Source of the DNA: a virus
Lineage: Duplodnaviria; Caudoviricetes
IMG/VR virus record: IMGVR_UViG_3300027759_000132
Location: 1 to 47,906 of that record
DNA: 47,906 nt
Direction: 5' to 3' (one strand)
The first letter of the stretch is position 1; every line of letters begins with the position of its first letter. The translations under genes were made by a program, and so were the position numbers. The notes under the pieces are model-generated. The model did no database searches, was not told the DNA's origin, and worked only from the letters and a program-made list of their open reading frames with translations. Of this stretch, positions 2 through 12,462 are shown one piece after another.

Positions 2-52
2 GAATTGAATCGTATCGCTCCAGAACTGGCTAAGGAACAAGCTAAGAAATGA
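2..52 (+). CDS. 3' end of an upstream gene (partial, ...ELNRIAPELAKEQAKK*)
   Basis: Frame 2 is open from the window edge to TGA at 50-52, which overlaps the next ATG (ATGA coupling). Confidence 0.55.
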   Translation, partial: ELNRIAPELAKEQAKK

Positions 53-291
53 TTCCACAAGATGAAGAAACTCACACGCAACTCATGCGGGCGTTTAACG
101 AGTACTTCAAAGCAAATCAACGTTGGATCAACAAAGGCACACGCCGTGCTGGGGAACAAACACGATACTGGCTTGCCCAGATTCGTATTATTTCACGTGA
201 ACGGCGAAAATTAATACAAGATTGGCGTCACAGTGTGGACGCTCACAAGGCTCAGAAGAAGCAGGTTCCAGGAGACGCAGACACTAACTAG
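49..291 (+). CDS. Small basic helical protein, possibly DNA-binding (histone-like/Hc1-like phage family)
   Basis: 80 aa, Arg/Lys-rich. The pattern 'F.EY..AN..W..KG..RAG...R..L..I....ERR..IQ' resembles small phage nucleoid-type proteins. Confidence 0.5.
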   Translation: MIPQDEETHTQLMRAFNEYFKANQRWINKGTRRAGEQTRYWLAQIRIISRERRKLIQDWRHSVDAHKAQKKQVPGDADTN

Positions 292-294
292 TGT

Positions 295-723
295 ATGTCT
301 TGGACTTATGAAAATACAATTATAGAAACCTTACCCGAAGAATGTGTAGGTTTCGTATATCTCATAACCAATACAATCTCTGGACGTATGTATATAGGCA
401 AAAAATTAGCCAAGTTCGCAAAAACATCCTACAAGATGGTCAAACTCAAGAACGGAACTAAGAAACGAAAGAAAATACGGTCAAAAATTGATTCGGATTG
501 GCGAGATTATTATGGCTCGAATCTAGAATTAAACGTGGACGTATTAAAATTAGGCAAAGAAAACTTCACTCGAGAAATACTATACTACTGCACATCCAAG
601 GCGCAATGCTCTTACTTCGAGGCCAGAGAACAATTTTCCCGCAAAGTTCTAGAATCAAAAGACTATTATAACGGACAGATATCTGTCCGTGTACATGGTT
701 CACATATACTCAAAGCTCAATAA
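295..723 (+). CDS. Short GIY-YIG endonuclease-family protein (Seg-like catalytic domain only)
   Basis: GFVYLITN...MYIGKK motif, YYGS, a conserved Glu (YFEAREQ) and terminal YYN. No C-terminal NUMOD/HTH DNA-binding extension is visible. Confidence 0.85.
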   Translation: MSWTYENTIIETLPEECVGFVYLITNTISGRMYIGKKLAKFAKTSYKMVKLKNGTKKRKKIRSKIDSDWRDYYGSNLELNVDVLKLGKENFTREILYYCTSKAQCSYFEAREQFSRKVLESKDYYNGQISVRVHGSHILKAQ

Positions 724-749
724 TTCAGGCCTTTTAACTGCCAAATAAG

Positions 750-1192
750 CCCGCACAGGCGACTAAATTGTGCCCTTAAAGCTGGATCACGGATCGCAGT
801 CAATGGAATTCCTTACCTTGGCGGAAGGGTTTAAAATCACTATCGTAACAGACGAGGATTGGATATGCCTATAACCAGTTTGATTTTAAAGAGAAAATAT
901 TTAAAAGGCTAAAAGAGGGAGAAATACCCGCGGCTATTGGCATGTTAACGTATGCTTATAGACCTGCCGTTGTAATTAAGACTCAGCTCGTGGTACCGGA
1001 CAACCGCCACTGTAATGCTGTAACGTTAAGTGAACTGCTCAACTCAGATAATGTTCATTTTTAGCCCGCCAGGGCTAAGTGTGACTACACAATCTAGATA
1101 ATATTTACAGTGCTTCGCACTTGACTATAAACACAATAAGACATTAGAAAAAGCTCGAGCGAAAGCGAAGAGCAGATGTACGCAGTACATCT
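750..1192 (+). ncRNA. Candidate large structured non-coding element (RNA and/or ssDNA hairpin cluster)
   Basis: No ORF of 60 aa or more in ~490 nt. About a dozen consecutive or nested stems, e.g. 830-839/881-890 (10 bp perfect), 1061-1067/1072-1078, 1174-1181/1185-1192. Confidence 0.6.
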
Positions 1193-1200
1193 TTCAATAC

Positions 1201-1208
1201 TATAAATA
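1201..1208 (+). promoter_or_regulatory. T4-type late promoter TATAAATA
   Basis: Exact gp55 consensus 7 nt upstream of ATG 1216. Confidence 0.8.
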
Positions 1209-1215
1209 ACATATC

Positions 1216-2040
1216 ATGAAGATTTTAGACATTATAACTGAAGCAAGCACTCCAACAGAATTGCCTGGTGAGTTGCAGACTCTCGTATCTAACTGGATCA
1301 CTAAAAATCCAGACAAGATGAAAGGCGCAGACGCCAAGGTAATGACTCGTTACAATCCTAACATGATAACGCTGTTCAAGAAAGTTATGATTTTTGCTCC
1401 TCTTGTGCAGTTAAACTTAAACCTGTATGCGCTGGAGCAAATAGCCGCAGAACCTTTAGCAAAATTCCAAACCAGCAGTCCTGCATTTGCGGCATACACT
1501 CAAGAACAAAAAGACGCTTATATTACACAATCTAGAGAATTATACTACGGTGTATTTGCCGCTCAGACTGTGATACCTATGCTTGGCCGGTGGATAAGAG
1601 GAGGTGTTCCTGTAGTTAAAGAAATGTTTGATCTACTAGAATCTTCATTTGGCAAGTTGGGCGGCAAGTTGGGTTCTATAGTTAAAATATTTGTTGCTGT
1701 TGGCATTGAAGGATTTATATTATTCTTAGCTACACCGGCTGGTATTGCGTGGATGTCGGACAGCATATTCATGCCAATTATTCGCATGTCAGGAACTGGA
1801 GTAGCATGGACCTGGGACAAGGTATGGCCCATGATACAAAAATATACAGGCCTGCCGATAAGCGATGTCAATCCTGAAACTACTGCCGCAGTTAAACGTG
1901 ATATATCTCAGAATTCATTTGGTAATATAAAACTGATGGATCCTCAACAGTTTAAACAAAATCAAGATGCCATGTGGAAACGTGTAGACAGCAATCCTAG
2001 ATTTGCACCGCCTCCGCCTAACAAAAACTTAAACTATTAA
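1216..2040 (+). CDS. Hypothetical late protein, probably head-packaged, with hydrophobic segments
   Basis: Late promoter; N-terminus MKILDIITEA with an I-x-E protease-type site; hydrophobic stretch IVKIFVAVGIEGFILFLATPAGIAW. Confidence 0.6.
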   Translation: MKILDIITEASTPTELPGELQTLVSNWITKNPDKMKGADAKVMTRYNPNMITLFKKVMIFAPLVQLNLNLYALEQIAAEPLAKFQTSSPAFAAYTQEQKDAYITQSRELYYGVFAAQTVIPMLGRWIRGGVPVVKEMFDLLESSFGKLGGKLGSIVKIFVAVGIEGFILFLATPAGIAWMSDSIFMPIIRMSGTGVAWTWDKVWPMIQKYTGLPISDVNPETTAAVKRDISQNSFGNIKLMDPQQFKQNQDAMWKRVDSNPRFAPPPPNKNLNY

Positions 2041-2252
2041 ATTAACGCCATTCCGCTTTTCTTTGTAATTTCAATATTGTCTTGCACAATTGCGTTCATT
2101 AACTGGATATCTTCCAGACTTAAATCAAACATTAAATTATCTATGGTCACACCGCCACGCATGTACCAGCATAATCGATACAATTGCGATTTGTAATTTT
2201 TAATACCTTCTTCTAGCCTAGTTAGATAATTTTCAATCTCACTATCGCTCAT
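2037..2252 (-). CDS. gp51-like baseplate hub/tail assembly protein; probably the C-terminal part of a frameshift fusion
   Basis: Directly follows the gp26-like gene; LCWYMRGG motif; no well-spaced Shine-Dalgarno; in the -1 frame relative to the upstream slippery site. Confidence 0.6.
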   Translation of the reverse strand: MSDSEIENYLTRLEEGIKNYKSQLYRLCWYMRGGVTIDNLMFDLSLEDIQLMNAIVQDNIEITKKSGMALI

Positions 2253-2257
2253 TCCAA

Positions 2258-3085
2258 CTAGGCCTTGACGAAAAAACTTGTTTGGTCCATGGTAATTGCA
2301 ATTTGATTTTCTGCACTACACTCATTACATATAGCCGCAATCTTAGGAATTTCCCAAGCAACTCTATTTGCTTCAACTTTGGCTTTGACAGCATCAAAAA
2401 TATCTTTGTCACAGTTATCTAACCATTCAACAATAAATTCTCTTTGTTCAACTATTTGGTCGCCTGTATCAACACTGGCAATTTGTAAAAGTATAGCTTG
2501 ATGTTGAATTGCAGTTAGCTTGGTATACAGCTCATTTACTAAAATACCTTGCTGTTGTTCGTCAGTCATTTCTGTTATTTGTTTTAATTGACGTTGCAAT
2601 TGAAAATTCTGCATTTGAAATCCAGTCCATTGCTTGTAAGTCAGTGGATGAATTTTAATAGATAAATCTTTTAATACAATTTTATTGTCGTACTGGCAAG
2701 AATTATAATGCTCAACAACTGTGCCCAGTTCGATGTCATAATCATTAACAGAATTACAGGCTGTACACTGATGAGTTACTGACATGGCATTGCCTTGGGT
2801 GGCAATTCTAATGGCTGTTAATATTGGATCCATGTCTAACAAGCACAACTCCCAGCCGTCTTGTATTGTTGGGCAACAGCTTTCAATTACTTTAACAGTA
2901 GCTTCGCCTGTAAGTAGCGCATCTGGAGTTTTCATTAGTATTTCGTCCATGCCAGTCATGCCAAATACAGCAACGTTGTCAGGATCTCCATTCAGCGTTC
3001 CTGGAGCATTGTATACTCCTTTGCTGGGTAGTTTGATGTACACCTTAGGTTGTCTAAAATACTTTTTCAATGGGTTATTGGCCAT
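2258..3085 (-). CDS. T4 gp26-like baseplate hub assembly protein/chaperone
   Basis: NPLKKYFRQPKVYIKLPSKG, MT..DE...KTPDALL, AIRIAT.G, two CxxC pairs, ends ..SFF..; GGAGA RBS at 3091-3095 (minus strand). Confidence 0.75.
   Translation of the reverse strand: MANNPLKKYFRQPKVYIKLPSKGVYNAPGTLNGDPDNVAVFGMTGMDEILMKTPDALLTGEATVKVIESCCPTIQDGWELCLLDMDPILTAIRIATQGNAMSVTHQCTACNSVNDYDIELGTVVEHYNSCQYDNKIVLKDLSIKIHPLTYKQWTGFQMQNFQLQRQLKQITEMTDEQQQGILVNELYTKLTAIQHQAILLQIASVDTGDQIVEQREFIVEWLDNCDKDIFDAVKAKVEANRVAWEIPKIAAICNECSAENQIAITMDQTSFFVKA
2270..2276 (-). other. Predicted -1 ribosomal frameshift heptamer T TTT TTC
   Basis: Zero frame AGT TTT TTC GTC AAG GCC TAG; -1 frame TTT TTT CGT CAA GGC CTA GTT GGA ATG runs without a stop into the 2252 ORF. 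Confidence 0.65.
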
Positions 3086-11396: not shown

Positions 11397-11471
11397 GCTA
11401 AATACATAGTAATGATCCACATGGTGTGGATTTTATGCGGATATCCAACCGCGTACGGCCTAGAACGCCGT
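11397..11471 (+). promoter_or_regulatory. Late promoter (GCTAAATA) plus three-hairpin 5' leader
   Basis: Stems 11415-11431, 11434-11455 and 11455-11471 upstream of SD TAAGGAG. Confidence 0.6.
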
Positions 11472-11493
11472 TATTTCTTAAGGAGAAAATAAA

Positions 11494-12462
11494 ATGGGAC
11501 GTCCTTTAGCAAAAAGATTTTTTGGTGCTAGCGGTGTAAGTAGTCTAGGTGGTGAATTAGTATCCACACTAGCATTTACAGCGGCTAACAACTCAAGTGG
11601 TTTTACCAACGGTTCAACAACTCAAGCAACATTCAGCGCACCGCAGATTGCAGGTGGTACTACAGCAACTGGTACAATCGTAACTGGTCCAGCTGGCGCA
11701 ATTTTACAACTAACAGCTGGTAACGGTAGTGGCACAACACTAACAGGTTCAGGTACAGCAGTAGCAGTAACACAAACATTTACTGGACTAGTTCAAAAAG
11801 CAACTAACGGTTCAGGTTCAGGCGCTGTGTTCACAGTGGCACGTACTGGAGGTACTAGCTACGGTGCTAACACTACAGTAACTTGTACCACAGCAGGAAC
11901 TGGTTATGTTTCTGGTAACACAGTTACTATTGACGGCGCACTATTAGGTGGTGTTACTACAACAAACGATTTGACAGTTACTCTGGGCGGTTCGGTTGCT
12001 ACTACTGGCACAATTACCAGTATTACAATTACCAATGTTGGTTCAGGTTATACAACTGCTCCAACACTAAGCTACTCAACTGGTACAATTGGTACATTGA
12101 CTATCACTGCATCTTTAACAAGTTCACAGCAAGACGCTATTGTTTGTCAAGGTATCACAAGTGGTTCAACAAATCGTACAACTGGTAACGACATTATCAA
12201 GCAAGTGTCAACTCGTCGTTATAGAATTCAAACTCAAGACGGTACAGCAGTTTGTACATTAAAAGCAAGTGCTCCATCAGCGGCTGGCGAAATGGCTATT
12301 GTTGCCACTGATGCTAGTTCTGGCACTTACTATGTTACTAAGTTGACAAAAAACAGAGCAACATTAACACGCGGTACAGGCACAGTTTATACTGATGGTG
12401 CGTCAGTTCCTTGGACTTTTGGAACTGCTGATGCTAACACATGTAAGATTCCAAGTGCTTAA
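11494..12462 (+). CDS. Virion structural protein, possibly head decoration/fibre
   Basis: First gene after the capsid, with its own promoter and strong SD; MGRPL.K..FG start; Thr/Gly-rich; G.GY repeats. Confidence 0.7.
   Translation: MGRPLAKRFFGASGVSSLGGELVSTLAFTAANNSSGFTNGSTTQATFSAPQIAGGTTATGTIVTGPAGAILQLTAGNGSGTTLTGSGTAVAVTQTFTGLVQKATNGSGSGAVFTVARTGGTSYGANTTVTCTTAGTGYVSGNTVTIDGALLGGVTTTNDLTVTLGGSVATTGTITSITITNVGSGYTTAPTLSYSTGTIGTLTITASLTSSQQDAIVCQGITSGSTNRTTGNDIIKQVSTRRYRIQTQDGTAVCTLKASAPSAAGEMAIVATDASSGTYYVTKLTKNRATLTRGTGTVYTDGASVPWTFGTADANTCKIPSA

Follow-up and report, generated by a model that had tools for sequence, protein, structure and literature searches.

A copy of the Polynucleobacter-1 RNA gene (Rfam RF01718) is found at 740..1102 (+ strand, ends approximate) of a 47,906-nt stretch of giant-phage DNA, here called the window (IMGVR_UViG_3300027759_000132, Caudoviricetes; record 13% complete). 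This copy carries added anatomy that is absent from the literature found: two 7-nt boxes that match each other (twin boxes) and, past the second one, a tail of hairpins of a DNA type. The predicted RNA (~365 nt) most likely grips the DNA that it came from and may start the copying of this DNA. A role of the gene as an RNA-primed, ColE1-like replication origin is proposed tentatively. With similar reserve, an RNA family of T4-related jumbo phages is proposed, extending from lake and marine phages to the cultured E. coli phage 121Q, in which a reprogrammable 7-nt box would address the phage's own DNA and open it for replication or for a resolvase cut.

The gap 724-1215 and its RNA family

T4-type portal, prohead protease and major head genes are present in the window. 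The gap 724-1215 ranks largest among the 30 gaps between called ORFs, 23 of which are below 60 nt. A first-pass annotation had described it as a region tiled with stems, without any ORF and without a terminator separating it from the GIY-YIG gene that precedes it. The gap and all of the stems listed are found in the sequence, and no terminator-like site was found between the gene and the element. No sizeable ORF is present; the only ones are a 40-aa ORF (942-1064) and the end of one 45-aa reverse ORF. The extent first given to the element (724..1105) is modified at both ends: the conserved part begins at ~740, and a conserved tail of DNA hairpins continues over 1110-1192. The usual upstream neighbour is a basic helical protein of 80 aa with no family match (49..291, + strand). 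The site TATAAATA (1201..1208, + strand), which is T4-late-promoter-like, lies outside the element and would serve the next gene. Elsewhere in the window, a freshwater-2 RNA (Rfam RF02980, 75.1 bits) is found at 11415-11496 (+ strand), in the gap that separates the major head gene from the ORF after it, and a gp26/gp51-like hub gene followed by a 71-aa ORF at 2037-3085 (- strand).

The RNA had been presented as unrecognised. The Rfam search, which had been proposed as a check, gives a confident match to a known family: RF01718 is matched over the full model (1-141) at 748..890 (+ strand), with 82.7 bits for a gathering threshold of 37. The Polynucleobacter-1 motif was published in 2010 from freshwater and estuary sequences, with no function given in the available part of the paper (Weinberg et al., PMC2864571). 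Its supplementary alignment (file 5, parts 206-207) includes 16 sequences, many of 280-300 nt, with one pseudoknot, and extends to the equivalent of window position ~1030. About 80% of the RNA is thus already in print, without function. The window RNA has the same helices and the same loop-to-3′ pseudoknot as the published alignment in the parts consulted; the twin boxes and the hairpin tail lie beyond the end of this alignment. The literature covered (which excludes subscription papers) yielded nothing about the boxes or about what Polynucleobacter-1 does; the motif itself turned up there only in the 2010 paper and in two genome papers.

Relatives that lack the Rfam domain exist: 11 of 12 diverged loci give no RF01718 match, and the domain is reduced or different in a clade with an inverted GIY-YIG gene. 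Pattern scanning of genome contigs returned mostly chance hits, with weak profile matches in 4 of 120 loci. The best of these matches is L280 2095-2170 (contig of a Chloroflexota MAG; E = 2.7e-5).

Fold, twin boxes and hairpin tail

Folding alone is weak evidence for the element (energy z = -2.0 on the + strand, -0.6 on the - strand); comparison across relatives is strong evidence. It supports the earlier claim of a structured + strand RNA, of ~365 nt and usually located directly 3′ of a GIY-YIG gene. The core pattern is present in 75 of the 80 loci fetched via the GIY-YIG gene, the remaining 5 ending less than 300 nt from it. Five chance pattern loci were dropped, and 8 more before the counts on 117, 106 and 101 loci given here. 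Co-varying columns were judged against a home-made tree-based null (not R-scape), and the fold was scored on 76 sequences chosen out of 117 representatives. The structure of 85 pairs was derived from these same 76 sequences and is therefore favoured by them: 83.9% of its cells are paired, with two-sided change in 60 of the 85 pairs. Its score is reached by none of 500 shuffles; slid controls give 36-45%.

Four pseudoknots are found among the supported pairings. Pairing 740-744/818-822 is among the top co-varying pairs (402 of 436 cells paired, 117-sequence set). The short knot 748-751/758-761, which crosses helix 753-757/769-773, is paired in 221 of 230 cells of the same set. Both knots (740..822, + strand) show weaker pairing on the 76-sequence alignment, through misalignment. 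In the third, the loop (946-950) of a long hairpin (930-967) pairs with 1024-1028 (930..1028, + strand); it is 97% paired in the 76 relatives, with 5 of 5 pairs changing on both sides. This is the pseudoknot of the 2010 alignment, and the only one of the four that stands in the published structure line as far as that source was available. The fourth (969-973/1000-1004; 99.7% paired in the 76 relatives) crosses 984-987/1017-1020 and 990-993/1007-1010 and forms with them the most conserved core (967..1020, + strand).

Several of the helices proposed from the window sequence are retained: 753-757/769-773, 830-839/881-890, 984-987/1017-1020 and 990-993/1007-1010 are 97, 81, 97 and 99% paired, with two-sided changes. 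Stem 997-999/1004-1006 is 95% paired and never changes on both sides; its 4-nt loop, first read as a plain hairpin loop, is in fact part of the pseudoknot with 969-973. Helices 1028-1035/1053-1060 (62% and 44% paired) and 1079-1090 (71% paired) are not conserved. The argument that G-U pairs favour the + strand holds among the 117 sequences (233 G-U versus 42 A-C at 41 paired columns).

Box 1 (AGATAAT after ACTC; 1046..1052, + strand) is unpaired and variable, and matches box 2 (AGATAAT after ATCT; 1096..1102, + strand), the proposed DNA landing site. The two are separated by a hairpin (1061..1078, + strand), past which lies a conserved GTGAC-like motif (1081-1085). Columns 1052/1102 and 1046/1096, which are among the top co-varying ones, change by identity and not by complementarity. 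Flanking motifs anchored 157 of the 238 candidate elements. Box 1 is identical to box 2 in 151 of these 157 distinct elements, which include 17 box sequences; shuffling of the box pairing gives a mean of 24 and a maximum of 37 identical pairs (2000 shuffles). The 6 mismatches correspond to 2 mis-anchored elements and 4 boxes off by one base. Among the 81 unanchored elements, 73 more diverged ones were examined separately: 69 could be scored, of which 51 match at 7/7 and 11 at 6/7 positions (control: 1 of 69 at 7/7). The three bases preceding the boxes always differ (CTC versus TCT), a difference that the anchoring demanded; because of it, the boxes are not a plain duplication. Box-to-box spacing is 45-62 nt and is not phased.

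No complement or third copy of the boxes is enriched within 1.2 kb, and no box-complementary co-varying column was found in neighbouring columns. At homologous gene positions of 7 large contigs, the best candidate partner is found in 3 of 7, no better than permuted boxes. A 12-nt match to box 2 is found in contig G001 near 62.6 kb and in no other contig. Identity of free sequence, combined with the lack of a partner on the same strand, would be expected from pairing with the opposite DNA strand. A tree of 85 GIY-YIG proteins requires no fewer than 31 box changes (mean of shuffles: 44), and no GIY-YIG residue explaining the box sequence was found on this tree. Contig G006 (330 kb, 93% complete) holds two copies with different, self-matched box pairs: ACATGAA twice after the nuclease gene, and AGATAGA twice 180 kb away. 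A single-copy element per genome is rejected on this basis. A Box C/D or K-turn reading was also rejected, as it fails for boxes such as ACCACAG and GCATAAT.

Variant elements that lack the usual core motif and keep the twin boxes and the tail are found in G006 (130.5-131.0 kb), L369, L370 and L373. In L083, box 1 and the hairpin past the core are deleted between repeats (natural loss or assembly collapse).

The tail includes a mini-hairpin 8 nt past box 2 (1110..1120, - strand; GCGAAGC on the template strand) and, on the RNA-like strand (1155..1192, + strand), the mini-hairpin GCGAAAGC (1159-1166) and an 8-bp hairpin with a C-GCA-G loop (1174-1192). Within 150 nt past box 2, 135 of 153 tails have GCGN(N)AGC (shuffled: 4.5; inside the RNA: 6 of 154) and 114 have C-GNA-G triloop hairpins (shuffled: 1.3). 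The two strands are ordered: template-strand hairpins lie 0-19 nt past box 2 (73 sites), RNA-like-strand ones 40-99 nt past it (81 sites). Mini-hairpins also occur elsewhere (15-86 per contig); in 6 of 8 contigs, just one of them was counted at the element. According to the available part of PMC13037366, such mini-hairpins have a much higher stability as DNA than as RNA, and they are found at the G4 origin, RSF1010 ssiA and N4 promoters.

The nuclease slot and cultured jumbo phages

The gene preceding the element (295..723, + strand) encodes a SegE-type GIY-YIG nuclease of 142 aa (PHROG 447; PF19835, 108.7 bits for a cut-off of 25) with a Lys-rich beta-hairpin (residues 40-66). The predicted model (pLDDT 78) has the GIY-YIG fold (Z 8.5, rmsd 2.5 over 78 residues with 1ln0, I-TevI; Z 5.2 with T4 EndoII); a Foldseek search gave no match at E <= 0.001. 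Y22, Y33, G35, E109 and N126 are invariant in 28 relatives, among which column identity is 80%; they are presumably the counterparts of I-TevI residues, in a mapping that covers no catalytic Arg. The protein shares its fold with I-TevI and T4 endonuclease II and has no separate DNA-binding domain. Unlike a homing endonuclease, it is found in a fixed slot after gp46 and behaves as a housekeeping enzyme.

The slot after gp55-gp47-gp46 is occupied in 8 contigs by the GIY-YIG protein (5) or by a RusA-like PD-(D/E)xK protein (3); in the resolvase slot of the cultured phages BF, GAP32 and 121Q, endonuclease VII is found. As RusA-like and endonuclease VII genes fill the same slot, the GIY-YIG protein is read as an exchangeable resolvase: the exchange suggests a resolvase role for PHROG 447, and the 142-aa protein is likely to be the junction resolvase of the gp47/gp46 operon. 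An endonuclease VII search of 5 contigs gave no match and is uninformative, the controls being silent too. Interchange of three nuclease types is seen where the slot after gp46 is compared in G001, G004, G006-G010, the window and L670-L672. PHROG 447 is labelled 'NAD synthetase' in many records.

Linkage between the RNA and the GIY-YIG gene had been expected, and it is found in part. Among 101 loci found from the RNA side, 70 have the gene next to the RNA and in the same orientation, 16 have it inverted, and in 7 an inserted gene stands between the two; a PD-(D/E)xK nuclease is present instead in 3, and neither nuclease is found within 1.5 kb in 5. In the cultured phages Melnitz, S-SRM01, phiN3 and P-HM1, the GIY-YIG family is present, there is no room for the RNA and the whole record has no exact core match. 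The RNA as a partner or guide of this nuclease, suggested at first, is thus weakly supported at best, since the gene can be inverted, displaced, replaced or absent and its family occurs without the RNA in these four phages. The GIY-YIG protein is probably a neighbouring resolvase and not the RNA's partner. Twin boxes are found after PD-(D/E)xK genes in 30 of 36 loci and in 23 of 55 further loci (shuffled: 2.4%); among the latter, 32 have no twin box under the rule used, and 50 have a gap of at least 267 nt. Structured gaps of ~800 nt or more with near-matching boxes (6/7, by eye) follow the PD-(D/E)xK gene of L376 and L378.

Large gaps are also found at the syntenic slot of cultured jumbo phages (BF, 803 nt; Phosso, 1014 nt; PA5oct also); no large gap adjoins the resolvase gene of SCTP-2. 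RNA profiles and Rfam gave no match in the BF, Phosso, PA5oct and SCTP-2 gaps, nor did blastn of the core against cultured phages. In Sinorhizobium phage Phosso (L668 1100-2500), an RNase HI gene lies directly beside the gap. The BF gap matches 62 records, including NC_041917, NC_019401 and KM507819, at 2-5 places per record among the matches listed (40 of the 62); BF-like elements may thus be multi-copy in cultured jumbo phages. A CGTT(G/A)C...G(C/T)AAC pairing, with two-sided change in GAP32, is found in BF, GAP32, 121Q, Munch, XaC1 and phAPEC6. The same six phages have a 7-nt repeat (TCGTCAG, CGTCAAG or GCGTCAA) around a hairpin, the copies being 59-87 nt apart, and similar tails. The look-alike element is at the same slot in 121Q, GAP32 and BF, and outside the resolvase slot in XaC1 and phAPEC6. 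Homology of the cultured-phage element to Polynucleobacter-1 would follow from synteny and architecture only, with no score.

Possible roles of the element

In the tentative origin reading, the gene would be transcribed and the knotted transcript would present box 1 unpaired. Box 1 RNA would hybridise to the template strand of the DNA where the identical box 2 lies, ~50 bases downstream. The RNA-DNA hybrid would likely hold the DNA open; the flanking DNA hairpins would then form and replication would start, the primer being processed probably by a host enzyme. The RNA does have a segment able to pair with downstream template DNA, since box 1 equals box 2 and has no co-varying partner. Points against this reading include the shortness of a 7-9-bp hybrid, the large invariant core, which box pairing leaves unexplained, the presence of mini-hairpins elsewhere in the genomes, and the 32 further PD-(D/E)xK loci with no twin box under the rule used.

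Known origins offer partial parallels, here limited to the available parts of the sources. Like ColE1 RNA II (PMC4412123, PMC5043065), the element would have a long folded RNA, a segment pairing with the template and an opened region downstream. In ColE1, a run of rG has to pair with a run of dC in the template (PMC4412123). ColE1 has a fixed G/C stretch and an antisense RNA I, whereas the window element has a free 7-nt code. T4 oriF and oriG combine a promoter with a persistent hybrid (PMC4412123). The likeness is in the T4-related phage and in a transcript proposed to stay hybridised and to prime; the difference is that oriF/oriG consist of a middle promoter and an unwinding element, and that part of the source describes neither a large knotted RNA nor matched boxes (PMC4412123).

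Contigs of relatives from 4 metatranscriptomes cover ~232-1230, one of them spanning 555-1040, strand, ends and level being invisible in contigs; 24 runs carry small shares (maximum 0.19) of the stretch. In 12 of the 16 loci with an inverted gene, a sigma70-like promoter site is directed towards the RNA, and G010 has a perfect one. Promoter-like sites are found at 3 of 116 same-strand loci; none was found for the RNA in the window. Raw skew tracks the coding strand. After correction for strand, 3 of 7 contigs have a skew peak close to the element; its sign is that of a terminus rather than an origin, and this third-position test is confounded by the boundary between early and late genes. RNase H (PF00075) is absent in 5 of 5 contigs, two of which are at least 90% complete. 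Reverse transcriptase (PF00078) was found in none of 4 contigs, one of them 99% complete (control positive in 3 of 14); a retron or DRT ncRNA was rejected for want of this linked enzyme.

The other readings account for part of these data. An unlikely, though not negligible, one is a trans-acting scaffold or regulatory RNA, with the twin boxes as two sites for one phage or host protein or as RNA-RNA oligomer contacts and the tail as a terminator region. The elaborate fold, the own promoter in 12 of 16 inverted loci, the relocated second copy in G006 and the 3-5 partial matches per record in GAP32/121Q-like phages (among the matches listed) would fit it, as would the AGGC(A/T)A repeats shared by the RNA and some gene leaders (4 of 8 contigs). 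However, a tolerant protein would not need exact box matches in 151 of 157 elements, the two G006 copies carry different boxes, and the tail loops are of the DNA C-GNA-G type, on both strands. A second reading, rather improbable, makes the first-suggested nuclease partner more specific: the RNA would bind the small nuclease and box 1 would guide a cut at its own box 2, leading to recombination-dependent replication or packaging. The identity rule would suit a guide. A small nuclease gene is found at most 1.5 kb upstream in 96 of the 101 RNA-side loci, and in the model the basic beta-hairpin could bind RNA. The slot is nevertheless occupied by three unrelated folds (GIY-YIG, RusA-like PD-(D/E)xK, endonuclease VII), the same box is found with different nucleases, the GIY-YIG family exists without the RNA in the four phages named above, and 4 contigs, two of which are near-identical, show no genome-wide depletion of their own boxes. 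OMEGA/HEARO RNAs and the IS110 bridge RNA are structured RNAs, the former located beside an IscB/IsrB/TnpB-type nuclease. As in these systems, a structured RNA lies by a nuclease gene and carries a short stretch that is also found as a DNA site within the element itself. Unlike in them, there is no IscB, TnpB or recombinase, the nuclease is exchangeable, invertible or absent, and the position is conserved, not mobile. An OMEGA/HEARO RNA-guided nuclease was rejected, the protein being GIY-YIG and the RNA-nuclease pairing not obligate.

A ribozyme role is quite improbable; in it, the RNA would cleave itself, ligate or circularise, with the invariant pseudoknot core acting at both boxes in turn. 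The compact core with invariant bases and crossed helices would suit such a role, but no internal guide complementary to the boxes is found, no ribozyme family is matched up to E 10 (Rfam), the element is not inserted in a gene, and the core is replaced in the box-keeping variant of G006 (130.5-131 kb). The helix order is also unlike that of group I introns, which have a P3/P7 core with P4-P6 and P8. A group I intron with a homing endonuclease was rejected on this ground and because the element is intergenic and has no Rfam intron match to E 10. A role as a packaging or prohead RNA that works with portal or terminase, its boxes serving to mark phage DNA as own, is very improbable: the element precedes the portal gene by ~4 kb in the window and is at most 10 kb away from this gene in the contigs fetched, and its long-range knots could be intermolecular, but the promoter-like sites are of the sigma70 (early) type, one G006 copy is 180 kb away, and the position tracks the gp47/gp46 operon as much as head genes. 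Cis-regulation of a neighbouring gene, with the element as its leader or 3′ UTR, is hardly to be expected. The element does sit directly between genes, and the motif's row in the available part of the 2010 table ('y y ?') marks cis-regulation as probable (PMC2864571). Against this, the upstream gene is inverted in 16 of 101 loci, and the next gene, with its own late-promoter-like site, is on the opposite strand in 48 of 106, which disfavours a leader role.

Polynucleobacter-1 has been without function since 2010, and the matched boxes make its function genetically testable. Cultured jumbo phages of E. coli, Cronobacter and Serratia with look-alike elements provide an experimental system. The origin reading, if true, would explain how replication starts in a large group of jumbo phages, and the natural RNAs would then include one that finds DNA through a short code open to change.

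AGGC(A/T)A repeats are present in the RNA, and in 4 of 8 contigs a few genes have at least two of them in their leaders. Two or three of them are found in the leader of one conserved gene (G001, 148.3 kb; G004, 43.5 kb; G007, 6.9 kb; G008, 147.1 kb).
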